From Eubacteriales bacterium (GTDB lineage Bacteria; Bacillota; Clostridia; Oscillospirales; CAG-382), in assembly GCA_045642945.1 (NCBI GenBank), contig JAZUJV010000145.1, positions 1-34,479 of the forward strand: a DNA stretch of 34,479 nt, given 5' to 3'. Below are positions 7,481-31,032 of the stretch, one piece after another (position 1 is the first letter of the stretch; every line of letters starts with the position of its first letter). The position numbers and the translations under genes were made by a program. Under the pieces are notes generated by a model that was not told where the DNA came from, made no database searches, and saw only the letters and a program-made list of their open reading frames with translations.

Positions 7481-7801
7481 CATCGGTCGGTTTTTTGGTA
7501 AAATATGTAAATATCGAGCATTTTCCCGATTTCCGAGATTTTTTCTTACATTATTATTTAATATATTCCGCTTTCGTGCGCAGTTTACTGCCCGTATACG
7601 GGCAATTGAAAACACACGTTTTTTGTGTAAAATTATTTTGGATGATTATTATTATTTATATGTAGAGAGAAAATTGCGGAATAAAATGGAAAAAGGTGTA
7701 TCGCGGTATTTTGATACACAAGCACGGTCGGGCGGACCGCGCAAAAAGATCATGACGCAGCGTTTCTTTTTTAAAAAAACGACCCGAAGGGAGGGAGATG
7801 G

Positions 7802-9622: not shown

Positions 9623-9646
9623 AATTCCGCGGAAGGAGGACCGCAC

Positions 9647-11734: not shown

Positions 11735-12708
11735 AAGCCATTCTTATTTCGGTCATCGTCATCCACGTCATCCTGTGCGCGATAGCGATACTTCTGACGA
11801 TTTTCAAAAAACTCCGTCTGCGCCCGATGGCGCTGACCTATCTTATACTCGTTCCGATATTCGGGCCTGTCAGTATTCTGTTTCTTCATATCCACAAGCT
11901 CCGCGGCGGCGAAGACGCCGAGGTGAACGTCTCGAAATTCCGTATAGAAGCGGATATATACCGTTCGATCGGATTTTCGACCGACGAGGACGAAGACGTC
12001 GTTTCGCTCGAAGAGGCGATGATTTTAAACGATTCGAACACCCGCCGCAGCCTTATAATGGACCTCGTGAAAGAAAACGTCGTCCCGCTCGAAGAAGCGC
12101 TGACATTAAGCACCTCGAACGTTCGCCGTAAGCTTATGATGGACGTGCTGAACTCCGACACCGCGGCGTTTTACGGATTGCTTGAACAGGCAAGGCTTAA
12201 CGACGACGTCGAGGTGGTGCATTTCGCGACGACGGCGATGTCCGAGCTTAACAAACAGTACGATTTAGAGCTCGAGCATTTCCGCAAGCTCGACGAGGCC
12301 GAGCCCGAAAACGCCGAAATGCTTTATGAATACTGCGGCTGTATGAAAAGCTTTCTCGAGCTCGAAATAATAAAAGGTCAGATGCTCGAGATGAGGCGGG
12401 CGCAGTATATCGACCTGTTAAAAAGACTTATCGCGCTCGAGCCCACGCCCGAAAGCTATTGCGATTTAGCCGAGCAGCTTATGCTCGCCGACAGGTTCGA
12501 CGAGGCGAAATCGACCTTTGACGATATGTTCGAGCGTTACCCCGAAAACGAAAACGTCTGGATACTTTATATAGAATATTTCGTCCGTCTCGGCGACGGC
12601 GCGGAGGTAAAAAAGCAGGTCGAGGAGGCTTTGCGCGAGCATATTTATTTCAGCTCCGCCACTTATGAAAGACTCTCGTTCTGGCTTGAAAAATCGGGGA
12701 GCAAATAA
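11731..12708 (+). CDS. pelE: PelE-like membrane protein with TPR-like C-terminal domain
   Basis: 325 aa, with an ATGA overlap on the pelD stop. Two N-terminal TM segments are present. There is a tandem 22-aa repeat (VVSLEEAMILNDSNTRRSLIMDLV / VVPLEEALTLSTSNVRRKLMMDVL), then TPR-like helices (YCDLAEQLMLADRFDEAKSTFDDMFERYPENENVW). Assignment rests mainly on position and architecture. Confidence 0.6.
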   Translation: MKAILISVIVIHVILCAIAILLTIFKKLRLRPMALTYLILVPIFGPVSILFLHIHKLRGGEDAEVNVSKFRIEADIYRSIGFSTDEDEDVVSLEEAMILNDSNTRRSLIMDLVKENVVPLEEALTLSTSNVRRKLMMDVLNSDTAAFYGLLEQARLNDDVEVVHFATTAMSELNKQYDLELEHFRKLDEAEPENAEMLYEYCGCMKSFLELEIIKGQMLEMRRAQYIDLLKRLIALEPTPESYCDLAEQLMLADRFDEAKSTFDDMFERYPENENVWILYIEYFVRLGDGAEVKKQVEEALREHIYFSSATYERLSFWLEKSGSK

Positions 12709-12741
12709 TTTTCCGAAAAATACGAATAAGGAGGCAACACC

Positions 12742-14589
12742 GTGGGAGAATCCCAGAAAACGAAATATATAACGATTTTCGGCATCCTTGCCGTGTTCCT
12801 TCTTATAGCCGCGATACTTTTCGCCGAAAGAGCGGGAATACAGATAAAGGAAAAAGAAGAAAAAATATCCTATCTCGATCCCGAAAAGGTCGTATATATC
12901 GAAGACGCGATGAGCGGGATGAAAAAAGAATGTCTTATCCTCACCGACCTCGGAAGAAACGACAGCGCGGACGCATATACTGAATTTGACAGGATGCTTC
13001 TCGATATGAAGGTCCCGAACGACGTAATCGACCTCGGAAGCGAAAAGATGCCGGAGGACCTTTCCGGATATTCCTCCGTCATACTTCTGACGCCCGACGC
13101 AGACGCGCTCGGAAGCGATATCGAAAGACTTTCCGATTGGGTAAGCGGCGGCGGTAATCTGCTTATCGCGATGACGCTCGAGTTCAGCCCCTCCTCGGAA
13201 TTTCTGCTCGAAAAGGCGGGCGCGGTCTATTTCGGGCCGTATATCGTCGTGCGCGATTTATGGGTAGACAAAAACTTTATGCTCGGCGGCGGACAGTCTT
13301 TTCCGATCCCCGACCCCTTCGATTCTTCGAGAATGGTACAATTACGCGAAGACGCGGAGATTTACGCGAGGGCGAACGGCGAAAACGGCGTTCCGATAAT
13401 ATGGTCGAGGGATTTCAAGGACGGAAAGATCGTAACCGTCAACCTCGGCTTATACGAAAAATCCACCCGCGGCTTCTATGCGATGGCTTATTCGCTGCTC
13501 GACGACGTCTGCGCCTATCCCGTGCTCAACGGGCTCGTCGTATTCCTCGACGATATGCCCTCCCCCGTTCCCGAGGGAGAATCGCAGTATATCGAAAGAG
13601 ATTATCATATGAGCATCGCGGATTTCTATGTCAATAAGTGGTTCCCCGATATAGAAAATCTATCGAAAAAATATAACTTCCCTCTCGTCGGTCTGATAAT
13701 AGAAAACTACGGCAAAGACGTTTTCGGGAACACCGCGAGACAGCCCGACACCGCGCGTTTCCTCTATTTCGGCAACCAGATACTCAGAAGCGGCGGCGAG
13801 CTCGGATACCACGGCTATAACCACCAGCCGCTGACGACGACTATAGATTACGGCGACCTTTTCAATTACACGGCTTGGGAAAACGACGGCGCCATCGCCG
13901 CGAGCTTCGGCGAGCTTATGGATTTTTCCGAGATGCTTTACCCCGACGCGAACATTTCGGTCTACGTGCCGCCTTCCAATATAATGACGGAAGAGGGACG
14001 CGAATATATCGGCTCGATATTCCCGAAAGTCAGAACGGTGTCCGGGACTTATTTCGAAGACGCCGCTTACGATTATTCCTATACGACAGAATTTTTCGCC
14101 GCGAGAGACGGCGTCGTGGAGCTGCCGCGAATATCCTCCGGCTCGGTCCCCGACGATTTTATGGGCATGGCGATACTTTCCGAGCTGAATATGCACATGG
14201 CGTTCTCGCATTTCATCCACCCCGACGACGCGATGGACGTCGACAGAGGTGCCGAGCTCGGCTGGCCGACGCTTTATAAAAATCTTAACACGCTCTTCGA
14301 CTACGTTACCGAAAGCGCCCCCGCGATGCGCCACGTCGACGCCTCGACGCTCGCCTGCACGGTACAGAGATGGAGCGGTCTGACGGTCGATAAAAAATGG
14401 AGCAAAAGCGGGAACAAGGAAGTTCTTACCGTTACCCTCGGCAATTATATCGACGAAGCTTATCTTATGATGAGATTCAATACCGGCGCTCCGGACGGCG
14501 TCAGCGGAGGAAAACTTACGAAAATGACGGAAACGCTTTATCTGCTCGAAGCGGAAGGCGCCGTCGTTACCTTTGAATGGAACAGGTGA
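12742..14589 (+). CDS. pelA: membrane-anchored PelA(DA)-like polysaccharide deacetylase (DUF2194-like)
   Basis: 615 aa with a GTG start 7 nt after AAGGAGG. It has an N-terminal TM (ITIFGILAVFLLIAAILFA). CE4-like metal-ligand motifs FLDDMPSP and GYHGYNHQ are present. The gene lies between the pelE-like and pelF-like genes. Confidence 0.7.
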   Translation: MGESQKTKYITIFGILAVFLLIAAILFAERAGIQIKEKEEKISYLDPEKVVYIEDAMSGMKKECLILTDLGRNDSADAYTEFDRMLLDMKVPNDVIDLGSEKMPEDLSGYSSVILLTPDADALGSDIERLSDWVSGGGNLLIAMTLEFSPSSEFLLEKAGAVYFGPYIVVRDLWVDKNFMLGGGQSFPIPDPFDSSRMVQLREDAEIYARANGENGVPIIWSRDFKDGKIVTVNLGLYEKSTRGFYAMAYSLLDDVCAYPVLNGLVVFLDDMPSPVPEGESQYIERDYHMSIADFYVNKWFPDIENLSKKYNFPLVGLIIENYGKDVFGNTARQPDTARFLYFGNQILRSGGELGYHGYNHQPLTTTIDYGDLFNYTAWENDGAIAASFGELMDFSEMLYPDANISVYVPPSNIMTEEGREYIGSIFPKVRTVSGTYFEDAAYDYSYTTEFFAARDGVVELPRISSGSVPDDFMGMAILSELNMHMAFSHFIHPDDAMDVDRGAELGWPTLYKNLNTLFDYVTESAPAMRHVDASTLACTVQRWSGLTVDKKWSKSGNKEVLTVTLGNYIDEAYLMMRFNTGAPDGVSGGKLTKMTETLYLLEAEGAVVTFEWNR

Positions 14590-16042
14590 ACTTGTGAAAA
14601 TATGCCTGATACTCGAGGGCTCGTATCCGTACGTTAACGGAGGCGTGTCTACCTGGATGCACAATTATATAAAAGGGATGCCGGAACAGGAATTTATCCT
14701 CTGGGTAGTCGCCGACAAAGCGGAAAAGAAGGGCAATTTCGTTTACGAAATACCCGAAAACGTTACCGAGGTGCACGAGATATTCCTTGACGACGCGCTC
14801 AAGCTCAAAGCGGACAAGGATTTCAAGGCGTCCTTCACCGATCACGAGGTCGAACAGCTGCGCAGGCTGATGGATTGCAAAAATCCCGAATGGGAAACGC
14901 TGTTTTCGCTTTATCAGGACCGCAGGATCGACCCGATGGCGTTTTTGCAAAGCGACGCGTTTTTAAAGATACTTACGGATATGTGCTTGAAGGATTATCC
15001 GTACATAGCGTTTTCCGACGCGTTCCATACGATAAGGTCGATGCTTCTGCCCGTGCTTTATCTTTTGAGCGCCGAAGCGCCCGAGGCGGACGTCTACCAT
15101 TCGACCTGCACGGGCTACGGCGGACTTCTCGCCTGCCTCGGCGGATATATCCATAAAAAGCCCGTGCTTCTGACCGAGCACGGCATCTATACGCGCGAGC
15201 GCGAGGAAGAGATAATCCGCGCCCGATGGGTACAGCCGGCGTTCAAAAAGCGCTGGACCGACTTCTTTTATATGCTCTCGGATATGATATACCGCCGTGC
15301 TTTCCGCGTTACGTCGCTTTTCGGCTACGCGAGAAAAATACAAATAGAGCTCGGCACAAATCCCGACAGCGCCTACGTCATCGCGAACGGCGTGAACTAC
15401 GACGCTTTTTCGAAAATACCCTTAAAAGAAGACGACGGCTTCGTAGATATCGGAGCGGTCGTGCGGCTTGCGCCGATAAAAGACATAAAAACCATGATAT
15501 ACGCGTTTTTCGAGCTTTCTTCGAGGCGGAAAAACGTAAGACTTCATATAATGGGCGGCACCGACGACGAAAAATACGCCGAGGAATGTTTTTCGCTCGT
15601 GGAATCAATGGGGCTTGACAACGTCATTTTCACGGGAAGAGTAAACGTTCTCGATTATCTTAAAAAGATAGATTTCACCATTCTGACGAGCATTTCCGAA
15701 GGTCAGCCGCTCTCCGTGCTCGAATCGTTCGCGGCGAGAAGACCCGCCGTCGTTACCGACGTCGGATGCTGCCGTGCGCTTATAAGCGGCGAGGATGGCG
15801 ACGAACTCGGCGAAGCGGGATACTGCGTGCCGCCGATGTACCGCGAAGGTCTCGCCGACGCGATGGAGCACATGTGCGAAAGCCGCGTAAGGCGCGAAAA
15901 GATGGGCGAGATAGGACAAAGACGCGTCGAAGCGTATTATCAGCATTATATGATGCTTGAAAATTATGAGAATCTGTATAAGGAGGTAGAAGAGCACTTT
16001 GGCGGGGATAGGATTCGAACTGAAGAAGCTGTATTCGGGTAA
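14573..16042 (+). CDS. pelF: PelF-like GT4 glycosyltransferase
   Basis: The ORF-track start is TTG at 14573, overlapping the pelA stop. The GTG at 14594 (V/MKICLILEG), preceded by AGGTGA, is an equally plausible start. It has the hallmark N-terminus KICLILEGSYPYVNGGVSTW and the EX7E motif EGQPLSVLE. Confidence 0.88.
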   Translation: MNGTGELVKICLILEGSYPYVNGGVSTWMHNYIKGMPEQEFILWVVADKAEKKGNFVYEIPENVTEVHEIFLDDALKLKADKDFKASFTDHEVEQLRRLMDCKNPEWETLFSLYQDRRIDPMAFLQSDAFLKILTDMCLKDYPYIAFSDAFHTIRSMLLPVLYLLSAEAPEADVYHSTCTGYGGLLACLGGYIHKKPVLLTEHGIYTREREEEIIRARWVQPAFKKRWTDFFYMLSDMIYRRAFRVTSLFGYARKIQIELGTNPDSAYVIANGVNYDAFSKIPLKEDDGFVDIGAVVRLAPIKDIKTMIYAFFELSSRRKNVRLHIMGGTDDEKYAEECFSLVESMGLDNVIFTGRVNVLDYLKKIDFTILTSISEGQPLSVLESFAARRPAVVTDVGCCRALISGEDGDELGEAGYCVPPMYREGLADAMEHMCESRVRREKMGEIGQRRVEAYYQHYMMLENYENLYKEVEEHFGGDRIRTEEAVFG

Positions 16043-17459
16043 AGGCGTATTCTCCGGAATAAGAGCCGTCGGTTATTCGACAGCCGTCTGCGCCGGCCCG
16101 ATGATACTCGGGATCCTTCTGCTTCTCGGGATAACTTTTCTATGCTCGTTTTTCGGAAGAAGCGGCCACGACAGAGAACTGCTCGTCTGTATGACGACCT
16201 ACAGCCTGCTCGGCTCGCTTCTGATAACGAGTTACTTTTCGATGATAATAACGAGATTTCTCGCCGATATGCTGTTTTCCGACCATAAAGAGGCGATTCT
16301 GCCGTCGTTTTTCGGGATAAACACGATAACGCTCGTCGTTGGCGGGATCCTTTACGCGATATATCTTTTCTTCTGCGGCTCACCGTTCATCCAATGCTTT
16401 TTCTGCTGGTGCTTCTTTATGGAGCTTATAGTTACCTGGAACGCGCAAAGCTATCTTACCGCGGTCAAGGAATATCGGATGATACTGCTCTCCTACGTGC
16501 TCGCCATCGTCGTCTCGCTCGGGCTGACGGCGCTGTTCCTCTGGAAAGGCGCACCGACGGTAACCGGCGTTCTCATCGCGCTCTGCGCGGGCTACGGAGT
16601 TATGCTTCTCTTCGATTTCGCGCTGATTTTCAGGCGTTTTCCCGACAGCAACCTCAGCCCGTTTATGTTTATGCGCTGGGCGGACAAATATCATTCGCTC
16701 ACCTTTTCGGGCTTGTTTATGACGGTTGGGCTTTTTTCGCATCTTATTATAATCTGGTGCAGCCCTTTACGCGTGATCGTCGAAGGCCTTTGGATGTGCG
16801 CGCCGTACCACGACGTTCCCGCTCTCGTCGCGTTTTTGAGCATACTGATAACCACCGTCAGCTTCGTAGTCTCGGTGGAGGTCAATTTTTATCCGAAATA
16901 TAAAGATTATTTCGCGCTTTATAACGACAAAGGAACGATAAAGGATATCTTGCGCACCGAAAAAGAAATGGTCGGCACGCTTAAAAGCGAGCTTTGGTAC
17001 ACGGGATTAAAACAGCTGTTTTTCACCGCCGCGGTCATCTCGATAGAGGAATTCGTGCTCGGCAGACTTCCGCTCGGGTTCAACGGCCTGATGCACGGAT
17101 ATTTCAGAACGCTTTGCGTCGGCTACGGTATCTACGCCGTCGCGAACTGTATATTCCTTATGCTGCTTTATTTCACCGATTACCGCGGAGCGCTCACCGC
17201 GTCGGCGGTTTTCGCGGCGGCGACGACGGGATTTACGCTTTTGTCGCTGCTTTTCGACGTAAAATACTATGGGTTCGGGTTCCTGCTCGGCTCGGCGGCG
17301 TTCTTTATATACGGCGTCGTGCGGCTGTCGTATTTCACAAGAAAACTTCCGTATTTCATCCTTGCGGTTCAGCCGCTCGTCGGCGAATCGAAAGAAGGGC
17401 AGTTCACCAAACTCGGAAAAATGATAGAGAAAAAAACTGAAGAGGAAAGAAGAAAATGA
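15999..17459 (+). CDS. pelG: PelG-like polysaccharide exporter (polytopic membrane protein)
   Basis: The TTG start lies 12 nt after AAGGAGG and overlaps the pelF 3' end by 44 nt. The N-terminus MAGIGFELKKLYSGKG is typical of PelG. Roughly a dozen hydrophobic segments follow. Confidence 0.85.
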   Translation: MAGIGFELKKLYSGKGVFSGIRAVGYSTAVCAGPMILGILLLLGITFLCSFFGRSGHDRELLVCMTTYSLLGSLLITSYFSMIITRFLADMLFSDHKEAILPSFFGINTITLVVGGILYAIYLFFCGSPFIQCFFCWCFFMELIVTWNAQSYLTAVKEYRMILLSYVLAIVVSLGLTALFLWKGAPTVTGVLIALCAGYGVMLLFDFALIFRRFPDSNLSPFMFMRWADKYHSLTFSGLFMTVGLFSHLIIIWCSPLRVIVEGLWMCAPYHDVPALVAFLSILITTVSFVVSVEVNFYPKYKDYFALYNDKGTIKDILRTEKEMVGTLKSELWYTGLKQLFFTAAVISIEEFVLGRLPLGFNGLMHGYFRTLCVGYGIYAVANCIFLMLLYFTDYRGALTASAVFAAATTGFTLLSLLFDVKYYGFGFLLGSAAFFIYGVVRLSYFTRKLPYFILAVQPLVGESKEGQFTKLGKMIEKKTEEERRK

Positions 17460-19252
17460 AGGGAAAAGGATTGCTAATCGCGCTTATAGCCGTCGCGTTC
17501 GCCGTTTTGCTCGTCGCCGCCGTCGCGGCTTTCACGAACTCGGGCGCCGACATCTCCGAGGATCCGGAAAGCGAAAGCTCCGGCGCGAACGTTACCGTGG
17601 CGACCAAAGAGGATATAAACGACCGACATATCAGGGACAATCAGTTTCTTTATGAAGGCGACGATCCTTTCGACGTCGTTACGATGTATCTCACCGTCAG
17701 CTACGGAAACGCCACCGACGGAACGAATCACACGTGGGAAGAGATAAACAAATATTCGACGTATTATTACGAAGACCTCGGCATCGAAAGATATAAAGTC
17801 GCCGGACTTTTACAGGTCGGCGACGAAAACGGCCCGACTTCGGGCTCGCTCGGATACGGAAGGACCATTCCGAACGCCACCGTGCAGATACGCGGGCAGA
17901 CCTCCTCGCTAAACCCCCAGAAAAACTATAAAATAAAAATTCTCGACGGAAACGGCGATTGGAACGGCCAGAAGACCATCGCGCTCAACAAACACATGAC
18001 CGACGGGCTCCGCTTCCGCAACAAGCTTAGCTTCGACCTTATGTCAGAGATCCCCGAGATAACCTCGCTTCGCACCCAGTTCGTCCACCTTTACGTCCGC
18101 GACACGACGGGCGACAACCCCGACGAGTTCGTCGATTACGGACTTTATACCCAGATAGAACAGCTTAACCAAACCGCGCTCAGAGCGCACGGCTTCGATA
18201 AAAACGCGCATCTTTATAAGATAAACTTCTTCGAATTTCTGCAATACGACGCCATCAGAACAGTCGACGACCCGGAATACGACGAAAAGGAATTCAACAC
18301 CTACCTCGAAACGAAGGGCAATTCCGACCACAGCAAGCTTATCCGGATGATCGACGCCGTCAACGATTATTCTATCCCGAGCGACGAATTGCTCGAAAAA
18401 TATTTCGATACCGAAAATATCGCCTACTGGATGGCGTTCACGATGCTCATCGGCAACTCCGACGTCCAGAGCAGGAATATGTATATTTATTCCCCGCTCA
18501 ACAGCGAAACGTGGTATATACTCCCGTGGGATTTCGACTGCGTCTATATGGACCTCGAAAACGAAATAGTGAAGCATTCCGACTTTAAGGATTGGCAGAA
18601 GGGCATCAGCAACTATTGGGGCAACGTACTTTTCAAGCGTGCGCTGATGTCGGAAAATTTCCGCGAAGAGCTTGACGCCGCCGTTACCGATCTTCTCGAA
18701 AATTATCTTTCGATCGAAAAAATCGCCGCGCTCTCGAAAAAATACGCCGAAACCGTAAAGCCCTACGCTTATACGATGCCGGATATCGCCAACGAACCGC
18801 TTACGAAGGACGCTTACGACGAAGTCCTCGAGCATCTCCCCTACGAGACGTGGGATAACTACGACAAATACCGTCTTACCCTCGAATCCCCGATGCCTTT
18901 CTTTAACTCCGTTCCCGAAAAAAGCGGAAATAATTACGTTTTCAGCTGGGGCAGCTCCTACGATATGCTCGGAGGCGACGTAAAATACCAGTTCATCCTC
19001 GCCCGCGACCCCGAATTCAAGGACGTTATCTTCAAAGAAGACGATGTCGCCATCCCGACGATAACGAAAGAGCTTACGCTTTCCCCCGGGCAATATTTCA
19101 TCCACACCCACGCGGTCAACTCCAAGGGGAACACGATGAACTGCTTCGACCAGTACAAAAACGAGTACGGCGCCATGTTCGGCGTGTTCTGCTTCTTCGT
19201 TGACGAAAACGGACAGTGTATTCCCTACGAAGACGTGGAGGGACGGCCGTAA
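17456..19252 (+). CDS. cotH: membrane-anchored CotH-family kinase-like protein with a C-terminal Ig/FN3-like domain
   Basis: 598 aa, with an ATGA overlap on the pelG stop. It has an N-terminal anchor (LLIALIAVAFAVLLVAAVAAF). The CotH-like core reads NKHMTDGLRFRNKLSFDLM ... LIGNSDVQSRNMYIYSP ... WYILPWDFDCVY. Confidence 0.8.
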   Translation: MKGKGLLIALIAVAFAVLLVAAVAAFTNSGADISEDPESESSGANVTVATKEDINDRHIRDNQFLYEGDDPFDVVTMYLTVSYGNATDGTNHTWEEINKYSTYYYEDLGIERYKVAGLLQVGDENGPTSGSLGYGRTIPNATVQIRGQTSSLNPQKNYKIKILDGNGDWNGQKTIALNKHMTDGLRFRNKLSFDLMSEIPEITSLRTQFVHLYVRDTTGDNPDEFVDYGLYTQIEQLNQTALRAHGFDKNAHLYKINFFEFLQYDAIRTVDDPEYDEKEFNTYLETKGNSDHSKLIRMIDAVNDYSIPSDELLEKYFDTENIAYWMAFTMLIGNSDVQSRNMYIYSPLNSETWYILPWDFDCVYMDLENEIVKHSDFKDWQKGISNYWGNVLFKRALMSENFREELDAAVTDLLENYLSIEKIAALSKKYAETVKPYAYTMPDIANEPLTKDAYDEVLEHLPYETWDNYDKYRLTLESPMPFFNSVPEKSGNNYVFSWGSSYDMLGGDVKYQFILARDPEFKDVIFKEDDVAIPTITKELTLSPGQYFIHTHAVNSKGNTMNCFDQYKNEYGAMFGVFCFFVDENGQCIPYEDVEGRP

Positions 19253-19253
19253 T

Positions 19254-20057
19254 ATGAAACCCCGTGAATCTGCCGAAAAATACCGCCACGAATTAAAATT
19301 CCTTATAAATCAAGGCGATTACGAGCTTATGCGCGCCCGTATGACGCCGGTTTTCAAGCCCGATAAAAATACGATAAACGGTCAGTATATGCTTCGGAGC
19401 CTGTATTTCGACGATTATCAGAACAGCGCCTACGAGCAAAAAGAAGACGGTATATTGGAAAGGAAAAAATACCGTATAAGGATTTATAATTACAGCGACG
19501 GCGTTATAAAGCTCGAAAGAAAGAAAAAATACGACGCGTATATATACAAAGAAAGCGCCGGTATAACGCGGGAGGAATTCGAAAAGATACTTCGCGGCGA
19601 CGTTGATTTTATGCTCGGCGACGAAAGAAAACTATTACGCGAATTCTACATCGAACACAAATGCAATTTCCTGCGCCCGAAGGTCATAGTCGACTACGAG
19701 CGCGAGCCCTATGTCATCGAATCCGGCGACGTCAGAGTTACCTTCGATATGAATCTGCGCGCGGCGGTCGGAAGCTTCGATATCTTCGACGAAAGTCTTC
19801 CCTGCCTTTCCTGCATCGACCCGGGCAAGCTCGTGCTCGAAGTAAAATTCACCGAGTTTCTGCCCGAAATAGCGCGCGAGCTGCTCCCGCCGAAGGCGCA
19901 GGAGTGGACCGCGCTGTCGAAATATGTTATATGCTGCGATAAAACCGCGTATCTGCGCAACGCTTCCTATTGGAACGACGACGGGCAGGGCGGCTCGGAT
20001 ATAAAAAAAGCGTTCCCGCCGAAAAGGTTCGGAACGCGTTACGAAAACCGAAAGTGA
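19254..20057 (+). CDS. VTC-domain (triphosphate-tunnel, polyphosphate-polymerase-like) protein
   Basis: The ATG lies 1 nt after the cotH stop; the track start at 19200 overlaps cotH and is less likely. Motifs YRHELKFLI, LRSLYFDD, RKKYRIRIYN, IKLERKKKY and LVLEVKF are as in bacterial VTC-domain proteins. Confidence 0.8.
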   Translation: MKPRESAEKYRHELKFLINQGDYELMRARMTPVFKPDKNTINGQYMLRSLYFDDYQNSAYEQKEDGILERKKYRIRIYNYSDGVIKLERKKKYDAYIYKESAGITREEFEKILRGDVDFMLGDERKLLREFYIEHKCNFLRPKVIVDYEREPYVIESGDVRVTFDMNLRAAVGSFDIFDESLPCLSCIDPGKLVLEVKFTEFLPEIARELLPPKAQEWTALSKYVICCDKTAYLRNASYWNDDGQGGSDIKKAFPPKRFGTRYENRK

Positions 20058-20067
20058 GGAAACATAA

Positions 20068-20739
20068 ATGAGTGTAAAGGATTTTATCAAATCGTCAATT
20101 CTTTCCCAGTTCCAGACGGGAAGCGTCGACTACGTCAATATAGCCGTCGCCATAGCCGCCGCGCTGCTGCTCGGGCTTTTCATCTATTTTATTTACAGCA
20201 AATTTTACGGCGGAGTCGTCTATTCGAGATCCTTCGCGATAACCCTCGTCGGGATGTCCGTTCTGACCTGTATGGTTACTCTCGCGATAAGCACGAACGT
20301 CGTTATATCTCTCGGTATGGTCGGCTCGCTTTCGATAATCCGCTACCGTACCGCGGTAAAAAGCCCGCTTGACCTTCTCTATATGTTCTGGGCGGTTACC
20401 GTCGGTATCACCGTCGGCGCGGGACTTTATTTCCTCGCGATAATCGTTTCGGTCGTGATGTTCGTTATAGTGCTCGTCTTCGCCGTCAAGCCCAAAACAG
20501 GATGCGTCTACGTCGCTGTGATACATTACGTCGGCGATACCGCCGAAGAGGAAGTCATGCGCGCCCTCGGCAGAGGAAAATACAGCGTCAAAAGCAAAAC
20601 GATGTATAAAGACCGCACCGAGCTTGCGGTAGAGATATTCTGCCGCTCGAAACAGCTCGCTTCTTATGAAAAACTCCGCGATATCGAAGGCGTCGAAGAC
20701 GTTACCTTCGTTCAGTATAACGGAGAATATAACGGCTGA
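20068..20739 (+). CDS. DUF4956-family polytopic membrane protein
   Basis: 223 aa with a GAGGAAA RBS. It has four or five TM segments and carries the motif SLSIIRYRTAVKSPLDLLYMFWAVTVGITVGAG. Confidence 0.8.
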   Translation: MSVKDFIKSSILSQFQTGSVDYVNIAVAIAAALLLGLFIYFIYSKFYGGVVYSRSFAITLVGMSVLTCMVTLAISTNVVISLGMVGSLSIIRYRTAVKSPLDLLYMFWAVTVGITVGAGLYFLAIIVSVVMFVIVLVFAVKPKTGCVYVAVIHYVGDTAEEEVMRALGRGKYSVKSKTMYKDRTELAVEIFCRSKQLASYEKLRDIEGVEDVTFVQYNGEYNG

Positions 20740-20744
20740 AAACT

Positions 20745-20852
20745 CGAAATTAACCCTTTGCGGGATTTTCGATATGCCCTGCGGGGCAAGAAAAAAATAC
20801 TTGAAATGCGCTTCGGCGCATTTCATATCGAATTTGTCTTAGGCAAATATCG
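20745..20852. repeat. family-1 hairpin-array repeat, copy b (inverted relative to copy a)
   Basis: The sequence is CCCTTTGCGGGATTTTCGATATGCCCTGCGGGGCAAG (20754-20790), then GAAATGCGC-TTCG-GCGCATTTC (20803-20824), then ATATCGAATTT-hairpin-AAATATCGAAA. It is colinear with the reverse complement of 7333-7441. Confidence 0.75.
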
Positions 20853-20890
20853 AAAAAAACCGACTGATTTTTCGTCAGTCGGCTTTTTCT
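20853..20890. terminator. bidirectional Rho-independent terminator between convergent operons
   Basis: CCGACTGA (20860-20867) pairs with TCAGTCGG (20875-20882). The stem is flanked by AAAAAAA upstream and CTTTTTC downstream. It lies between the DUF4956 stop (20739) and the DUF896 stop (20891). Confidence 0.75.
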
Positions 20891-21116: not shown

Positions 21117-24100
21117 TCATTTCTCGTTTTTAATGAATTTGCTCATGACTCCGAGCAATTCGTCGGGGTTTATCGGCTTGGGGATATGCGCGTCCATGCC
21201 GCTTTCAAGACTTTTCGTGATATCCTCGGCGAACGCGTTGGCGGAGACCGCGATTATCGGGGTATGATATTGCCCGTTTTCGAATTCGCGGATGTTTTTG
21301 GTCGATTCGTAACCGTCCATTATCGGCATCTGGATATCCATAAGTATAAAATCGTAATACCCGAACGGCTTTTCTTTATAAAGCTTATAGGCTATCTCGC
21401 CGTCGCCGGCGGCTTCTACCTTGACGCCGCGTTCTTCAAGCACTTCGCATGCGATCTCGCGGTTAAGCTCGTTATCCTCGGCGAGCAGCACGCGTTTTCC
21501 CGAAAAAACGACAGTCTCTTCGCTGTCCAAAGCCGATTCGTGCACCTGCGCGGCGATATCCTCTTCGCTTTGGAGCTTAAGCGGCAGCGTTACCTCGAAT
21601 TTCGTTCCGACGCCCTGCTTGCTCTCGACGTTTATTCTGCCGCCGAGCGCATCGGTAAGCCGTTTGACTATCGAAAGCCCGAGCCCCGTGCCCTGCTGAC
21701 CGCTGACGGTAGAGGTGTTTTCGCGCGCGAACTCCTCGAACATGTGCGCTAAAAATTCCTCGCTCATGCCGATTCCCGTGTCGGCAACGGAAATTCTGTA
21801 TTCCGCCGTTCCGCCCTCGGGAAGCGAGACCTGTTCGATGACCGCTTTGACTTTTCCGCCGTCGGGAGTATATTTCACCGCGTTCGAGACGATATTCGTG
21901 AAAATTCTCGAAACGTGGAAACCGTCGGTATAAACGTAATTATCCTTTATCCCGATAAATTTGCAATCGTAATCTATCGACTTCGTCATCGCGAGCGATT
22001 CGAGCATCGGGTTGACCCTGTGGAACATCTCGGTTACACAGACCGGCTCGTAAACGAGGTTGACCTTGCCCGATTCTATCCTGCTCATCTCGAGCACGTC
22101 GTTGATAAGGTCGAGCAGCTGTTCGCCCGAAAGCTCTATCTTCGAAAGACAGTCATCGACCTCCTTCGGCTCGTCTATATGCTTTCTGCCGATGCGCGTG
22201 AAACCGAGTATGGCGTTCATCGGCGTTCTTATATCGTGGGACATATTGAAAAGGAAAGTCGTCTTCGCGCTGCTTGCCTCTTCCGCTTTCGCGATAGCCT
22301 CTTCAAGCTCTTTTCTTATGCCGAGCTCCGTCTTTATCTCGCGGTCGATGTTGCGGAGCGCGGATATAACGCCGGTAACCTCGCCGTCGTCGCGAAGCGG
22401 GATAAGGCGCATCTGGTAATAAACGACGTCGTCGCCGTTTAACATACGGAAATCCGCCGTAACGCTTTCGCCGTTTTTAAACGCTTCGATAATGTTTTCG
22501 CGCGAAATGGTGTTTAAAAACGCTTCCTTGTCGTCGGGGTGTATGCTCTCCGCCATAAGACTGAGCCGCTTTGCGAAATGCTTTTCTTCAAGCGCTTCCG
22601 CCGAAACGAGCTCGGCGAACTCTTTCGCGACACTGCCGTGTAACGAGATAATGTCGTCGTTTTTATCCTCTTCGAAGTTTATGACGGCGATGCTGTCGTA
22701 TTCCGTCGAAAGCGCGGCGATATAGGAATTTTCGCGTTTTTCGGCTTCGACTATATCCGAAACGTCCTTGACGTTGGTATAAGCGATTATATCGCCCGAC
22801 ATCGCGCGCGTCATGGTTATCGTGCGGCGAAACCAAGCCTTTTTGCCCGAGAGCGTCTTCGCCTCGTAGTCAAAGGTTATCTCGCCCTTTCCGCTTTCGA
22901 AAGCGTTTATAAGAACTTCTCTGTCGGTTTTGTCTTTAAATTCGCCCGAGGATTCGCTGACGACGAATTTTTCGTTCCAGAGCTTTATGTATTTGTCGTA
23001 GCTGCAGGGCAGTTCTATCCCGAGAATATCTTTAAGCGAGGCTTCTTTGCCGTCTATATCTTTCCACGCGCCGTAGAAAAGCTCGTCTTTAGTCAAATTT
23101 GCCTCGAGCGATATCACCGCGTCGGAAAGCATCGCGCGTTTATAGCTCGAAAGCTGTTCGGAATTGGCGCGAAGCTCTTTTATATATTGCCGTTCTTTTT
23201 CTTCGGCTTTGTTCTTTGCTTTGCGCTCGCGGACCGTCGCGGCGGCGAAATAGCCGAGCACGGCGACGAGAAGCACCATCAGCACGACGCATATTGTCGC
23301 CATTCTGCGAAGCGGCGCGTAGACCGCGTCGGAATCGGCGAAAAGAATGACCTGCCATCCGTTTTCTATCGTGCGGGAGATAACTATATGGTTGTGTCCG
23401 ACGGCTTCGTATTCGAAGGGCTCATCGGTGGTCATCGCCTTTTTGAACGCGTCGGCGATTTTCAATTCGTCCCTGTCCGCGTCTTCGCCGAGATAGTTGA
23501 GTCCGAGCTCGCTTGCGTCCTTCGACGAAACTATCGTACCCGAACTGTCGATTATATAAGCAAGATGATAGTTGTCGTCGCTGACGTAATCGTGCGAATA
23601 ATCCGCCAGAGCCGCCAAACTTACGTCAAGCCCGAGCACGCTTTCGCCGTCGGATAAACGCTTCGTTACGCTTAAAACTATGTTGCCCGTGTCCATGTCG
23701 AGATAAGGCGAAGCCACGCCGACCTCGTCGCCCGCTTCGATAGCGGCGATATACCAAGGTCTTTCCTTCGGGTAATATTCGCCCCCGTCGGCGTAAGGGT
23801 CCCACCTGTTGCCGTCGAGATATTCCCCGCGGTAATAGCCGTAAAGACCGGTAAAGCTTTCGTCTATCTTCCCGATCTCGTTGTCGGTCTGGTATATAAG
23901 ATAATCCAATATTTCTTTGTTGTCCGCGCCGTTCCGAATTAAAAATTCCACGCTCGCGGCGGAGGAAGCGGCGACGTTTTTCGACCTCTGTAAGAACGCC
24001 GCGGTATTATCCGAAATGGCGTTTATCCTCTCTTCCGCGCTTTCGATAAGATTATCGCGCGTGTTGCCGTAAATCGAAAAGAAAGCGAAAAGCACCGCCG

Positions 24101-24188
24101 CGCAAAGCATTATAGCGAGCGCGAAGGCGACAAACATTACTATCGTGTTCTTTCTGCTGTTTTTTGTTTTTGCGGCTGACGGATCCAT
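21117..24188 (-). CDS. Cache/PAS hybrid sensor histidine kinase with one receiver domain
   Basis: The start is placed at MDPSAAK (ATG 24188), preceded by GGAGAA; the track start at 24245 lacks an RBS. Architecture: TM, dCache-like extracellular domain (PWYIAAIEAGDEVGVASPYLD), TM, PAS-like repeats. Kinase motifs are H-box FLFNMSHDIRTPMNAILGF, N-box NIVSNAVKYT, ADTGIGM and GTGLGLSIV. The REC domain reads LLAEDN...LMDIQMPIMDG...KP. Confidence 0.9.
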   Translation of the reverse strand: MDPSAAKTKNSRKNTIVMFVAFALAIMLCAAVLFAFFSIYGNTRDNLIESAEERINAISDNTAAFLQRSKNVAASSAASVEFLIRNGADNKEILDYLIYQTDNEIGKIDESFTGLYGYYRGEYLDGNRWDPYADGGEYYPKERPWYIAAIEAGDEVGVASPYLDMDTGNIVLSVTKRLSDGESVLGLDVSLAALADYSHDYVSDDNYHLAYIIDSSGTIVSSKDASELGLNYLGEDADRDELKIADAFKKAMTTDEPFEYEAVGHNHIVISRTIENGWQVILFADSDAVYAPLRRMATICVVLMVLLVAVLGYFAAATVRERKAKNKAEEKERQYIKELRANSEQLSSYKRAMLSDAVISLEANLTKDELFYGAWKDIDGKEASLKDILGIELPCSYDKYIKLWNEKFVVSESSGEFKDKTDREVLINAFESGKGEITFDYEAKTLSGKKAWFRRTITMTRAMSGDIIAYTNVKDVSDIVEAEKRENSYIAALSTEYDSIAVINFEEDKNDDIISLHGSVAKEFAELVSAEALEEKHFAKRLSLMAESIHPDDKEAFLNTISRENIIEAFKNGESVTADFRMLNGDDVVYYQMRLIPLRDDGEVTGVISALRNIDREIKTELGIRKELEEAIAKAEEASSAKTTFLFNMSHDIRTPMNAILGFTRIGRKHIDEPKEVDDCLSKIELSGEQLLDLINDVLEMSRIESGKVNLVYEPVCVTEMFHRVNPMLESLAMTKSIDYDCKFIGIKDNYVYTDGFHVSRIFTNIVSNAVKYTPDGGKVKAVIEQVSLPEGGTAEYRISVADTGIGMSEEFLAHMFEEFARENTSTVSGQQGTGLGLSIVKRLTDALGGRINVESKQGVGTKFEVTLPLKLQSEEDIAAQVHESALDSEETVVFSGKRVLLAEDNELNREIACEVLEERGVKVEAAGDGEIAYKLYKEKPFGYYDFILMDIQMPIMDGYESTKNIREFENGQYHTPIIAVSANAFAEDITKSLESGMDAHIPKPINPDELLGVMSKFIKNEK

Positions 24189-24271
24189 AATATTCTCCTG
24201 CCTGAGGCGAAAACGCCGAATGAAATTATATAAACGTTTTGACAAATTTTTACAATTTGTTCATTTACTGT

Positions 24272-24370: not shown

Positions 24371-24961
24371 TTATAAATCCGTCAGTATCGCTCTGCACGG
24401 CGACCCGTCTGTTCCCGTTAAATTCAGCGGCGCGCAGTTAAGCATATACACCCCGTCGGGGACTTCCGAGAGCCGTATCCCTTCGAGAAGCACGACGTCT
24501 TTTTCCAAAAGGATAAGATGCGTTTTCATCGGCGCTTCCTTCGGGCCGACGGTCTGCGATTCGTTGCCGACAAGGTGGATTTCCGCTTCCGCGAAGACTC
24601 TCGCCGCGTTCTCGGTTACCGTCGCGTCGCCTTTTAATAAAATCTTTTTCCAAGCCGATTTATTTAACTTTTTCGCGTCGTCAAGAATTTTTTTCGCGTC
24701 GGCGAAACCGACGTTTCCGCTATGCGTTACGACGTAGGCGGGGCCGATGAATTTATCGAGACTTATGCCGTCCACCCCGTTTTTCTCCTCGAAAAAATGG
24801 TAAGGCGCGTCGATATGCGTTCCGTTGTGGACGCAAAGCGAAATCGCCGTAAGGTTATAGTTCGCCCCGCGGCTGATTCTGACGAGCTCCCGCTTTTCCG
24901 GCCTCGGATTCCCGGGAAAGACCTCACATTCAAAGAGCGGTTGTGAGATATCGTATATCAT
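24371..24961 (-). CDS. cyclase-family protein (kynurenine formamidase/arylformamidase-like metallohydrolase)
   Basis: 196 aa with the HNGTHIDAPYHF signature (HxGTHxDxPxH). A GAGGGAAG RBS lies in the 20-nt gap after the copA stop. Confidence 0.85.
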   Translation of the reverse strand: MIYDISQPLFECEVFPGNPRPEKRELVRISRGANYNLTAISLCVHNGTHIDAPYHFFEEKNGVDGISLDKFIGPAYVVTHSGNVGFADAKKILDDAKKLNKSAWKKILLKGDATVTENAARVFAEAEIHLVGNESQTVGPKEAPMKTHLILLEKDVVLLEGIRLSEVPDGVYMLNCAPLNLTGTDGSPCRAILTDL

Positions 24962-24981: not shown

Positions 24982-27495
24982 TTATTCTATCCCGATAACG
25001 TTATATCCCGCTTCCTCGACGGCGGCTTTCAAAACCGCGTCGGCGACCTCTTTTTTAAGCGTTACCGTCGCTTTTTTCTCGACGTGCGAAGCTTTTACGC
25101 TCTCGACGCCGTCTATCGCAAGTAATGCTTTTTCGGTATGCGCTTCGCAATGCGGGCACATCATGCCCTCGATCTTTAAAATTTTCGTCATTTTGTTTTC
25201 CTCTTTTCCCGCTTTGTTTTTTTCGTTTATTTCTTTTACCGTTTCGGTTACGTCGATTTTTTGCTTTTTCGCTCTGCGCGGTTTTCTTATGTCAAAAAGG
25301 TTTAGCCGAAGCGAATTCATCACTACGCAAAAACTCGAAAGACTCATCGCCGCGGCGCATATCATCGGCGAAAGCGTTATCCCGAGCAACTTTTCATAGC
25401 ACCCCGCGGCGAGAGGGATGCAGAGCAGATTATAAAAGAACGCCCAGAATAAATTTTCGTAGATGTTTTTAAGCGTCGCGCGGGAAAGTCTTATCGCGGC
25501 GGGGATATCTTTAAGATTTTCGCGTAACAGCACGATTTCCGCCGAAGCGATCGCGATATCCGTCCCGCTTCCGAAAGCGGCGCCGATATCCGCGACGGTC
25601 AGCGCGGGCGAATCGTTTATCCCGTCGCCGACCATCATCGTTTTTCCGTTCTTTTTCAAAACGCTTACCGCGTCCGCTTTCCCGTTCGGGAGCACCGACG
25701 CGATAATATTTTTTATGCCCGCAAGAGCACCGACGTTCAAAGCCGTTTTTTCGTTGTCGCCCGTCAGCATGACGGTTGCAAGACCTAAATCCTCAAGCTC
25801 GCGCACGGCGTCTTTCGAGCTTTCTTTTATCGCGTCCGCCACGGCGATCATCCCGAAAATTCCGTCCCCGTCCGCGAAGACCGAAACGGTATATCCCTTT
25901 TCGGCAAGCGCGTTTATCTCGGCGCTTATCTCTTTGTCGACGCCGACTTTTTCTCTTATAAAGCCCGCCGACCCGCCGAAAATTTCTTTGTTTTCGATTT
26001 TCGCGCTTATCCCGAAGCCCGAAAAGCTTTTAAAGCTTTCCGCTTCGAAAAGTGCGAGCTTTCTGTTTTCCGCTTCTTTGACTATCGCTTTCGCTATCGG
26101 GTGCTCGCTGTTTTTTTCAATCGACGCGGCGCAGCGTAAAACCGTTTCTTCGTCTTGACGAAGCGCCTTTATAAAAGCGACCTGCGGCTCGCCTTTCGTT
26201 ACCGTGCCGGTTTTGTCGAGAACGACTATATCGGTTTTTCCCGCGTTTTCGAGCGCCGAAGCGCTTTTAAAAAGGATCCCGTTTCTCGCGCCGACGCCGC
26301 TTCCGACCATGATCGCCACGGGCGTCGCCAACCCGAGCGCGCACGGACAGCTTATCACGAGCACCGATATCGCCCTCGCGAGCGCGAAAGATACTTCCCG
26401 CCCGATAATTAGCCATATCACGAGCGTCAAGACCGCGATAAACACCACCGCGGGCACGAAAACCGCCGAAACTTTGTCCGCCGCCTTCGCCACCGGCGCT
26501 TTCGACGCCGAGGAATCCGCCACGGTTTTTATTATTTTCGCAAGCGTCGTGTCCTCGCCCACGCTTTCGGCTCTGCATTTAATATATCCCGAAATATTTA
26601 TCGTCGCGGCGGAAACTCTGTCCCCCGCCGACTTGTCCGCCGGAAGGCTCTCGCCCGTCAGCGCCGATTCGTCTATCGCCGCTTCGCCGCTTATTATCAC
26701 CGCGTCCACAGGCACGCTTTCGCCGGGTCTCACCGCGAAAACGTCGCCGACTTTTACAAATTCCGCGGGGACTTTCGTCTCCTCGCCGTTTTCGTTTATC
26801 AAAGTCGCTTCCGAGGGTTTAAGCTTTATAAGCTCTTTTAAAGCGCCCGTCGTCTTCCCTTTGCTCTTCGCTTCAAGCAATTTTCCGACGGTTATAAGCA
26901 CGAGTATCATCGCCGCGGACTCGAAATAAAAGTCGTTTTTTATATTCGAAGCGTCCCGCCCCGCGTTTTCCTCGATAAACGCCCTTACCACCGCGAAAAC
27001 GCTCCATAAAAACGACGTCAGCGACCCGAGCGATACGAGCGTATCCATATTCGGCGCGAGGTGAATTACCCCTTTTATCCCCGAAACAAAGAATTTTTTG
27101 TTTATTATCATCACGGCGAGCGCCAGAACGCCTTCCGCCGCGCCCAAAAGCCGGATTTCATCAAAAATTTTCGCCTGCGGCAAACCTATCATCGGCCCCA
27201 TCGAAAGATATAAAAGCAGGATAAGGAAGAGCGCGCTCGCGATAAGCCGCCTTAAAAGTATCGGCGTCTCTTTGTCAATAAGCGAGGAGAAAATGTCGTT
27301 TTTCGGCGCCGCGCCGTAGCCCGCGTCCTCGACGGCTTTTATTATTTCGCCGTCCGTCGCGCTTCCTTCGACGGCAAGCGTATTCGTGAGTAAACTCACC
27401 GAGCAATTCTCGACGCCCTTTACCGCTTTTACCGCCTTTTCCACCCGCGCGCTGCACGCCGCGCAGCTCATGCCCGTAACGTCAAACTGCCGCAA
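24982..27495 (-). CDS. copA: copper-translocating P1B-type ATPase with N- and C-terminal HMA domains
   Basis: 837 aa, with a TTG start 9 nt after AAGGAGG. The N-terminal HMA has GMSCAACSARVEKAV. Other motifs are CPC (SCPCALGLATP), DKTGT (LDKTGTVT) and GDGINDSPAL. The C-terminal HMA has GMMCPHCEAHTEKAL. Confidence 0.92.
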   Translation of the reverse strand: MRQFDVTGMSCAACSARVEKAVKAVKGVENCSVSLLTNTLAVEGSATDGEIIKAVEDAGYGAAPKNDIFSSLIDKETPILLRRLIASALFLILLLYLSMGPMIGLPQAKIFDEIRLLGAAEGVLALAVMIINKKFFVSGIKGVIHLAPNMDTLVSLGSLTSFLWSVFAVVRAFIEENAGRDASNIKNDFYFESAAMILVLITVGKLLEAKSKGKTTGALKELIKLKPSEATLINENGEETKVPAEFVKVGDVFAVRPGESVPVDAVIISGEAAIDESALTGESLPADKSAGDRVSAATINISGYIKCRAESVGEDTTLAKIIKTVADSSASKAPVAKAADKVSAVFVPAVVFIAVLTLVIWLIIGREVSFALARAISVLVISCPCALGLATPVAIMVGSGVGARNGILFKSASALENAGKTDIVVLDKTGTVTKGEPQVAFIKALRQDEETVLRCAASIEKNSEHPIAKAIVKEAENRKLALFEAESFKSFSGFGISAKIENKEIFGGSAGFIREKVGVDKEISAEINALAEKGYTVSVFADGDGIFGMIAVADAIKESSKDAVRELEDLGLATVMLTGDNEKTALNVGALAGIKNIIASVLPNGKADAVSVLKKNGKTMMVGDGINDSPALTVADIGAAFGSGTDIAIASAEIVLLRENLKDIPAAIRLSRATLKNIYENLFWAFFYNLLCIPLAAGCYEKLLGITLSPMICAAAMSLSSFCVVMNSLRLNLFDIRKPRRAKKQKIDVTETVKEINEKNKAGKEENKMTKILKIEGMMCPHCEAHTEKALLAIDGVESVKASHVEKKATVTLKKEVADAVLKAAVEEAGYNVIGIE

Positions 27496-31013: not shown

Positions 31014-31032
31014 ATACATAAAGGAGCAAGCT

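Follow-up and report, generated by a model that had tools for sequence, protein, structure and literature searches.

Gene organization of an extended pel operon

The 34,479-nucleotide stretch of DNA analysed here (the window; contig JAZUJV010000145.1 of the Eubacteriales bacterium assembly GCA_045642945.1, forward strand) contains, between positions 17456 and 20739, three genes encoding proteins of the CotH, VTC and DUF4956 families at the 3' end of a cluster of genes for Pel, a major biofilm polysaccharide. Judged by its gene identities and architecture, the locus is almost certainly a Gram-positive-type pel operon extended by a cotH-VTC-DUF4956 accessory group. The cotH-family gene (17456-19252, + strand, 598 aa) matched Pfam CotH (PF08757) with E = 1e-70 and 239 bits against a cut-off of 23.8, the VTC-domain gene (19254-20057, + strand, 267 aa) matched PF09359 with E = 9e-34 and 117 bits against a cut-off of 23, and the DUF4956 gene (20068-20739, + strand) matched PF16316 with E = 2e-9, a score exceeding the curated cut-off. 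The start codon of cotH overlaps the stop codon of pelG (ATGA at 17456-17459), the VTC ATG (19254) follows the cotH TAA (19250-19252) after a single T, and the VTC stop codon (20055-20057) is separated from the DUF4956 ATG at 20068 by a 10-nt gap that includes GAGGAAA. An earlier first-pass annotation of this DNA had described the same three junctions, and all of them were found in the sequence.

The + strand run of genes to which the trio belongs spans positions 7802-20739 of the window. Its sole strong + strand terminator is an intrinsic hairpin at 20860-20882, downstream of the trio, with an A-tract on its 5' side and a U-tract on its 3' side (-18.6 kcal/mol; z = -5.8 relative to shuffled sequences); the first-pass annotation had recognized this terminator and placed it at 20853-20890. 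Weaker terminator-like matches within the operon occurred at the chance rate (26, as compared with 22.5 +/- 5.6 in shuffled sequences). Promoter prediction called no + strand site between 16249 and 21323, and a search for a transcript end or strong internal promoter between pelG and cotH returned neither a predicted terminator nor a predicted promoter; the highest-ranking promoter-like site in this region, at 7606-7633, lies 5' of the first gene of the run. Because its junctions are tight, only one strong terminator is present and no promoter was called from 16249 onward, the interval 7802-20739 reads as one nine-gene operon of approximately 13 kb. The pel and cotH-VTC-DUF4956 genes are translationally coupled and end at one terminator, and the view that the trio is an operonic extension of pel was thus supported. 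A second hairpin on the - strand (20825-20802) adjoins the + strand terminator at the point where the operon and a histidine kinase gene converge, and the two hairpins (20802-20825 and 20860-20882) together probably form a bidirectional terminator.

The pel genes themselves are contiguous and lie on one strand. The pelD-like gene (9647-11734, + strand) was assigned on the basis of its position and its tblastn and jackhmmer homology to the first pel-cluster gene of related loci; its 695-aa product had no Pfam match and no sequence match in the PDB. Hydropathy analysis of this protein indicated an N-terminal extension of ~280 aa, a hydrophobic region at residues ~289-354 (roughly two to four helices) and a cytoplasmic C-terminal part. 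It is followed by a pelE-like gene for a TPR membrane protein (11731-12708, + strand; Pfam TPR_14 and TPR_19, conserved position) with two hydrophobic segments at its N-terminus, the deacetylase-like gene pelA_DA (12742-14589, + strand; DUF2194, E = 5e-135), the glycosyltransferase gene pelF (14573-16042, + strand; DUF3492, E = 1e-77, plus GT1) and pelG (15999-17459, + strand; PF16933, E = 2e-128). Upstream of pelD, and ending 24 nt before it, is a gene for a membrane protein with GGDEF and EAL domains (7802-9622, + strand; EAL, E = 1.8e-62; GGDEF, E = 1.3e-11), the GGDEF domain being degenerate: the translation reads LGDDH at the GGDEF motif and EVL at the EAL motif. This gene is the probable first gene of the operon, and no homologue was found in the same position across 85 related loci (L001-L085).

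Relationship to the described accessory group

The first-pass annotation regarded the trio and its linkage to Pel as previously undescribed, which was incorrect. Gram-positive pelDEA_DAFG clusters were reported in 2020 to carry an accessory group composed of cotH, a 'poly-phosphate polymerase' gene, DUF4956 and DUF4832, contiguous with the pel cluster in streptococci and clostridia, with a diguanylate cyclase/phosphodiesterase (DGC/PDE) gene replacing DUF4832 in bifidobacteria and with an extra N-terminal domain on PelD that accompanies the accessory genes (Whitfield et al. 2020, PMC7112168). All three genes were subsequently deleted in Streptococcus intermedius (2025, PMC12345266). The Pel linkage itself is therefore already known, and the locus described here joins a described group: the same three families occur in the same order, immediately after pelG and on the same strand, downstream of contiguous pelD, pelE, pelA_DA, pelF and pelG genes, and the ~280 residues ahead of the membrane segments of the window PelD-like protein, which had no Pfam or PDB sequence match, may correspond to the extra, epimerase-like N-terminal domain noted for PelD of accessory-bearing clusters.

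There are also differences from that group. No DUF4832 homologue was found in the window, where the terminator comes directly after DUF4956, whereas the described group includes this glycoside hydrolase gene. The DUF4832 gene varies among relatives, being absent in the Collinsella loci and L001-L003 and present in L004, L064, L075, L077, L085, L088, L090 and L092, and its absence therefore does not exclude the window operon from membership. In addition, the GGDEF/EAL gene of the window stands 5' of pelD, whereas the DGC/PDE gene of bifidobacteria stands 3' of the cluster, and the window CotH differs from those of the Whitfield-group systems in having a signal anchor that is not of the lipoprotein type.

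The VTC protein

The VTC protein consists of a single domain, and it was found to contain no hydrophobic segment, no SPX domain and no C-terminal three-helix membrane domain. A profile built from 26 diverse VTC homologues matched yeast Vtc4 with E = 3.5e-9 and, in the resulting alignment, nine residues of the window protein corresponded to nine of Vtc4: K15 (K200 in Vtc4), R74 and R76 (R264 and R266), K90 (K281), Y148 and R150 (Y359 and R361), E196 (E426), and S222 and K223 (S457 and K458). In Vtc4 these nine residues bind triphosphate-Mn2+ and are required for the synthesis of polyphosphate (polyP), and K458 is the residue replaced in the inactive Vtc2 and Vtc3 (10.1101/2023.01.27.525886). 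In alignments A1, A2 and A4, each of the nine equivalents was either invariant or conserved at 90% or more, so that the tunnel residues, when checked for loss, proved intact.

The strand motifs from which the first-pass annotation had proposed a triphosphate-tunnel fold (RHELKF, KYRIRIY, KLERKKK and LEVKF) are present in the translation, and structural modelling agreed with that proposal. The AlphaFold2 (AF2) model of the protein (pLDDT 87, pTM 0.82) had Vtc4 (3G3R) as its best Foldseek match (E = 1.6e-13, TM-score 0.63-0.66), and the first 13 matches were all chains of Vtc4, Vtc2 or Vtc3, while other tunnel enzymes such as ygiF matched at E = 1e-8 or worse. On the evidence of alignment and model, the VTC protein is predicted to be a cytoplasmic, Vtc4-like triphosphate tunnel enzyme with a complete putative polyP-polymerase active site. 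The catalytic tunnel domain of the eukaryotic VTC complex (Vtc4/Vtc3 or Vtc2/Vtc1) is homologous to it and has the same triphosphate-Mn2+ residues, whereas the bacterial protein lacks both the SPX domain and the fused three-helix membrane domain and possesses an additional conserved glutamate. This residue, E13 (codon 19290-19292), lies in the RHELK segment of strand 1, is invariant in bacterial VTC proteins and corresponds to Thr198 of Vtc4. We take it to be the second Glu of ExExK, a motif characteristic of tunnel enzymes that act as hydrolases.

The presence of E13 raises the alternative that the VTC protein is not a polymerase and instead carries out another tunnel reaction (tripolyphosphate hydrolysis, nucleoside triphosphate hydrolysis or cyclisation), for example a membrane reaction shared with DUF4956 in which a phosphorylated intermediate, lipid-linked or nucleotide, is cleaved or primed. 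Hydrolases and cyclases, among them ygiF, CYTH proteins and thiamine triphosphatase, have the same fold, and E13 would be a metal-binding glutamate of the ExExK motif that Vtc4 does not have. Against this, the window protein retains every one of the nine Vtc4 polymerase residues, including the equivalent of the K458 that the inactive paralogues have lost, and Vtc4 is its best structural match by several orders of magnitude; we consider a non-polymerase activity unlikely.

A separate observation concerns the length of VTC proteins. Among the 150 best VTC cluster representatives, 33 that make up a large clade (e.g. P0133, P0144, P0157 and P0242) carry an N-terminal extension of 130-400 residues that is rich in Lys, Arg, Pro, Gln and Glu, of low complexity, disordered in appearance and free of Pfam domains. 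One such extended VTC (L091:8001-9245) lies between a multidomain CotH of 1017 aa and DUF4956. A DUF4956-VTC fusion was sought as a 'Rosetta stone' for the pair, and VTC proteins of 300-620 aa do exist; the candidates were rejected on finding that the extra part was low-complexity sequence and not DUF4956.

The DUF4956 protein

The first-pass annotation had called the DUF4956 protein polytopic, which is right in that it is a membrane protein and incomplete in that the AF2 model (pLDDT 71.5) has five transmembrane (TM) helices (residues 22-47, 51-74, 78-95, 100-117 and 121-140) plus a soluble C-terminal domain. This domain (residues 146-216) has a beta-alpha-beta-beta-alpha-beta order and resembled the ACT domains of RelA/SpoT, NikR and homoserine dehydrogenase in Foldseek searches (TM-score 0.6-0.73 on the target); no sequence relative was found in the PDB, and the structural matches were to ACT domains only. 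The distribution of loop charges (K45 and R54; R92, R94 and K98; K141 and K143) placed the N-terminus outside and the ACT-like domain inside under the positive-inside rule. Six residues (R92, R94, T95, K98, P100 and D102) were invariant in 40 DUF4956 homologues. Both the ACT-like domain and the R92/R94/K98 loops are thus predicted to be cytoplasmic.

The same architecture is found in MgtC, which has five TM helices followed by a C-terminal cytoplasmic ACT-like domain. At the sequence level the DUF4956 protein matched the NCBIfam MgtC/SapB family weakly (E = 6e-5, residues 74-213), with 22.7 bits against a family cut-off of 214. It therefore scores far under that cut-off and, unlike MgtC/SapB, belongs to a separate Pfam family and always adjoins a VTC gene. 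The S. intermedius homologue SIR_1592 has likewise been described as an MgtC-like TM domain plus an ACT domain, and our description of the MgtC architecture draws in part on that study (PMC12345266). The proposal in the first-pass annotation that VTC and DUF4956 together form a counterpart of the eukaryotic VTC complex was not supported on this point, DUF4956 being unrelated by homology to the Vtc1-type channel of that complex (three TM helices there; five TM helices, an MgtC-like arrangement and an ACT-like domain here).

The CotH protein

The CotH protein matched the B. cereus CotH structure 5JD9 with E = 4e-8 and contains the LIGNSD..RN...WDFD block reported in the first-pass annotation. 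N334, D336 and N341 (NxD...N) together with D359 (WD(F/Y)D) align to the NFD..N and WDYD blocks of 5JD9, and K159, E235, N334, D336, N341 and D359 were conserved in 114-117 of the 117 CotH homologues from related loci (116-117 of 117 for D336, N341 and D359). In B. subtilis CotH, mutation of either D228 or D251 abolishes kinase activity (PMC7821199); the catalytic D228 corresponds to D336 in the window protein and the metal-binding D251 to D359. The putative catalytic residues, when checked for loss on alignment, were therefore intact, and the protein shares with Bacillus spore-coat CotH a kinase-like fold family as well as the catalytic Asp, the metal-binding Asp and the Asn.

The N-terminus of the window CotH consists of MKGK followed by a 21-residue hydrophobic segment, which by its composition would be a signal anchor or a cleavable signal peptide, and the kinase-like domain is therefore predicted to face outward. 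Export, as claimed in the first-pass annotation, was also supported by the orthologues, which have lipoprotein or Tat-like signal peptides. Many CotH orthologues have lipoboxes (AAGC, LLTGC, SGC), and those of Collinsella show SRRxL...LLSGC, a twin-arginine motif followed by a lipobox. The Collinsella N-termini (L010:8164-9963, L014:8164-9963 and others) read MSRR(C/R)L(I/F)EAAAGALLLSGC, again a twin-arginine-like motif and then a lipobox, and a [ST]RRx[FLI] motif was present in 59 of 82 Pel-linked CotH N-termini. For a kinase, export in folded form by the twin-arginine (Tat) pathway would be uncommon, and it may be relevant to cofactor loading. A 15-mer hydrophobicity screen (Kyte-Doolittle, KD >= 2.0) had indicated that most Pel-linked CotH proteins were without a signal peptide, a result rejected on inspection of the N-termini, which show lipoboxes and twin-arginine motifs; the lipobox regular expression under-counts lipoproteins.

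The window CotH differs from Bacillus spore-coat CotH in several respects. It is predicted to lie at the cell surface, whereas the spore-coat protein assembles in the mother-cell cytoplasm; it carries an additional C-terminal region of ~130 aa outside the characterised domains; and its gene sits in an exopolysaccharide (EPS) operon, while Bacillus cotH adjoins cotG or cotB.

Distribution and gene context

Relatives of the VTC protein numbered 4533 at E <= 1e-3 among 50%-identity cluster representatives. Gene context was determined for two sets of loci, each comprising the best 80 matches of a genome or a metagenome scan and hence not an unbiased sample, and adjacency counts cover only loci with enough flanking sequence. 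The genome-contig scan yielded close, mostly Collinsella, Pel-linked loci, and distant loci came from the metagenome scan, from contig look-ups and from a further profile search. With VTC identities of 55-64%, the 80 best genome loci were mostly from Collinsella and included Faecalibacterium prausnitzii, Butyrivibrio, Blautia, Roseburia, Oribacterium and others. Pel genes lay 5' of the trio in 65 of 65 close genome loci, CotH was directly 5' of VTC in 61 of 63 Pel-type loci, and DUF4956 directly followed VTC in all 75 genome loci and all 64 metagenome loci scored (139/139). The order pelD-E-A_DA-F-G-cotH-VTC-DUF4956 was found in every related locus on a long enough contig, and the Pel-linked order was seen in L087, L088, L090, L092 and L173 besides L001-L085. 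Since the same order recurs in all of these loci, the arrangement is not due to chance. More distant VTC proteins (40-53% identity) were Pel-linked in Paenibacillus, in one Anaerolineales metagenome-assembled genome and in two gut contigs. The Paenibacillus sp. locus (CP176756.1; L087:4583-7979) has a pel cluster in which two tandem CotH genes, encoding lipobox-bearing proteins of 568 and 566 aa, precede VTC-DUF4956.

The trio also occurs away from pel. Clostridium cellulovorans (L086; CP002160.1, 1819120-1835806) and C. cochlearium (L089; OAOH01000001.1) both have the order response regulator, histidine kinase, VTC, DUF4956, CotH, and no pel genes were found within 8-9 kb of either trio. Locus L091, with the order CotH (1017 aa), VTC, DUF4956, is likewise not Pel-linked. 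The authors of the S. intermedius study reported failing to find the three-gene synteny outside Pel loci; because the two Clostridium species carry the trio with no pel genes nearby, the published claim that it is confined to Pel loci is not correct (PMC12345266). For the 80 metagenome loci closest to the clostridial type, 0 of 26 contained pel genes, and 17 of 38 had a two-component system upstream. The two-component systems beside non-Pel trios were tested as PhoPR and appeared to be generic and OmpR/PhoB/WalR-like, every match falling under its family cut-off. These stand-alone clostridial operons have the same VTC-DUF4956 core as the window (VTC 40-44% identical) and an exported third protein, but differ in placing CotH last (VTC-DUF4956-CotH; CotH is first in the window), in being pel-free within 8-9 kb and in often having an OmpR-type two-component system upstream. 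A literature search returned no description of stand-alone clostridial VTC-DUF4956-CotH/Cthe_2159 operons.

In the non-Pel loci, the gene directly 3' of the VTC-DUF4956 pair encoded CotH in 30 of 48 and a Cthe_2159-family protein in 12 of 48, and 4 of the remaining 6 loci had CotH further along the contig. The Cthe_2159-family proteins (PF14262, E = 1e-53 to 1e-72) are exported beta-helix proteins of 560-715 aa and were found as the third gene product in L114, L115, L117, L128 (7201-8997), L131, L139, L153, L155, L157, L160 and L171. Many loci had seemed to lack CotH until Pfam searches revealed Cthe_2159, and the jackhmmer CotH model seeded from the window had also missed the divergent CotH of L091. 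The founding member of the Cthe_2159 family binds cellulose and polygalacturonic acid (PMC6712302). N-terminal hydrophobic signals were present in 20 of 20 Cthe_2159 proteins and 36 of 37 non-Pel CotH proteins; an N-terminal signal was detected in 0 of 89 VTC proteins from Pel-type loci (the window included) and in 2 of 81 elsewhere. Therefore, because Cthe_2159 stands in the place of CotH in about a quarter of the non-Pel loci, the third member of the module is an interchangeable exported protein, and VTC-DUF4956 is its obligate core. At one further locus (L163:6240-15496) the VTC-DUF4956 pair is accompanied by neither CotH nor Cthe_2159 and is flanked by a 916-aa right-handed beta-helix protein on the 5' side and by a GT1-family glycosyltransferase on the 3' side, with further same-strand open reading frames after the GT1 gene; the pair may here serve another locus of exopolysaccharide type.

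In a neighbour-joining tree of 68 non-redundant VTC sequences, constructed without bootstraps and from a biased sample, the Pel-linked proteins formed a single clade (one state change), and the context switched between CotH and Cthe_2159 about five times. Attachment to pel thus looks like a single event, followed by spread across phyla as an eight-gene unit. The pel-free trios of other clades would fit the notion that a mobile three-gene module landed 3' of pelG by chance and that its adjacency to pel is meaningless. We regard this as highly improbable and already disfavoured in view of the overlapping start and stop codons, the lack of a predicted terminator or promoter between pelG and cotH, the identical order in 65 of 65 related loci in a group that extends over Clostridia, Paenibacillus, Collinsella (Actinobacteria) and Anaerolineales, the single clade formed by Pel-linked VTC proteins and the Pel-related phenotypes of mutants (PMC12345266). 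Independence of the trio from EPS loci, which the first-pass annotation had named as evidence against its own proposal, thus applies to other clades, where pel-free copies occur, and not to the clade of the window, where linkage was complete.

Proposed role of the module and its main alternative

Because VTC, a soluble putative polymerase, is invariably accompanied by a membrane protein and an exported protein, it probably acts at the membrane to serve the cell exterior. We tentatively propose, as a possibility short of a probability, that polyP is made at the membrane by VTC-DUF4956 and handed to the surface for the exported partner. In this scheme VTC, docked on DUF4956 at the cytoplasmic side of the membrane, would make polyP from ATP. 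DUF4956 would convey the chain, or phosphoryl groups from it, to the cell surface, either through or along itself, and the exported partner would use or bind what is delivered there. CotH could use polyP as a phosphoryl donor for the phosphorylation of matrix proteins or of Pel; alternatively, it could anchor the polyanion to the Pel matrix. Because Pel carries positive charge and binds anionic polymers, a polyanion could cross-link it. The module would tune the amount of Pel and cell aggregation and would be dispensable for Pel polymerisation. The obligate VTC-DUF4956 pair and the always-exported third partner fit the idea of phosphoryl-donor export. That VTC-DUF4956 is a bacterial polyP synthase-exporter independent of polyphosphate kinase (PPK), with surface polyP serving exported partners as an ATP-independent phosphoryl donor or as a matrix polyanion, is a more specific claim, and we hold it to be quite doubtful. 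Under that claim the partner would be CotH in pel operons, with the cationic Pel matrix as its target, and CotH or a Cthe_2159 beta-helix protein at other loci.

The effects of the trio on Pel have been determined by single deletions of the accessory genes in S. intermedius C1365, in which the trio comprises SIR_1594 (CotH), SIR_1593 (VTC) and SIR_1592 (DUF4956) (PMC12345266). All four accessory mutants still produced Pel. The VTC mutant had no reported phenotype, Pel was increased in the DUF4956 mutant and decreased in the CotH mutant, and strains without SIR_1592 or SIR_1594 each showed a loss of over half of their aggregation in artificial sputum medium (PMC12345266).

Several points weigh against membrane synthesis and export of polyP. 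The DUF4956 model had no evident pore and no resemblance to the three-TM channel subunit Vtc1, and MgtC, the nearest relative of DUF4956, is a regulator and not a transporter. E13 may mean that the VTC reaction is not polymerisation. CotH retains what appear from alignment to be ATP-type kinase residues, and its use of polyP is conjecture. In addition, a linear pathway does not predict the S. intermedius result, in which loss of VTC was silent while loss of DUF4956 raised and loss of CotH lowered Pel (PMC12345266), and a literature search returned no report of activity for any bacterial VTC, DUF4956 or exported CotH. The statement in the first-pass annotation that the trio has no demonstrated function thus still holds in the published literature.

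The principal alternative gives VTC-DUF4956 a cytoplasmic role, in regulation or phosphate homeostasis. An MgtC-like DUF4956 would use its TM domain to bind ATP synthase, a PhoR-type sensor or the Pel synthase complex and its ACT domain to sense a ligand, VTC would make or degrade cytoplasmic polyP or triphosphate as that signal, and CotH would act separately as a surface kinase whose phosphorylation of proteins regulates Pel output, a role proposed by Whitfield et al. (PMC7112168). This explanation draws on the MgtC-like architecture of DUF4956 and its weak MgtC/SapB sequence match, on the opposite shifts in Pel upon deletion of DUF4956 and CotH with no effect upon deletion of VTC (PMC12345266), and on the position of non-Pel copies behind a two-component system (17/38), and the suggestions of both groups of authors lean the same way (PMC7112168, PMC12345266). 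A purely cytoplasmic role, however, leaves unexplained both the constant exported partner and the obligate membrane partner of a soluble enzyme, and the MgtC match is far under its cut-off (22.7 versus 214 bits); we consider this explanation possible but doubtful.

Neighbouring genes

Hybrid histidine kinase/response-regulator genes lie on both sides of the operon, at 4064-6922 (+ strand) and 21117-24245 (- strand), and the latter, which has a dCache sensor domain, points toward the operon terminator. Further downstream, the interval 30802-33828 encodes a 1008-aa protein with a glycerophosphodiester phosphodiesterase domain and a C-terminal type I dockerin, a further extracellular phosphate-ester enzyme near the operon, and the dockerin points to an organism with a cellulosome-like surface assembly. 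A P-type heavy-metal ATPase gene with two HMA domains (24982-27495, - strand) and, alongside it, a small putative cyclase-family gene (24371-24961) appear unrelated to the trio.

Implications for Pel biofilms and a possible surface polyphosphate pathway

To our knowledge, all bacterial polyP synthesis known so far proceeds via PPK1 and PPK2. The new elements here are the match of the VTC active site to Vtc4, the predicted sidedness of CotH and DUF4956, the obligate pairing of VTC with DUF4956, the pel-free trios and the exchange of CotH for Cthe_2159. A 2026 preprint described PPK-independent extracellular polyP in the Bacillus cereus group, the source of which was stated to be unknown and in which no VTC homologue is present (PMC13484657). 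A Vtc4-like enzyme with an obligate membrane partner and an exported partner is a candidate for a second, cell-surface polyP pathway, one that bears on the supply of phosphoryl donor to exported CotH-type kinases. The pel-free copies in culturable Clostridium species offer simpler test systems than the pel operons. The accessory trio accompanies Pel in gut Clostridia, Collinsella, streptococci and bifidobacteria, and the proposed pathway, if true, would constitute a dedicated Gram-positive route to extracellular polyP and would explain how kinase activity is possible on the outside.

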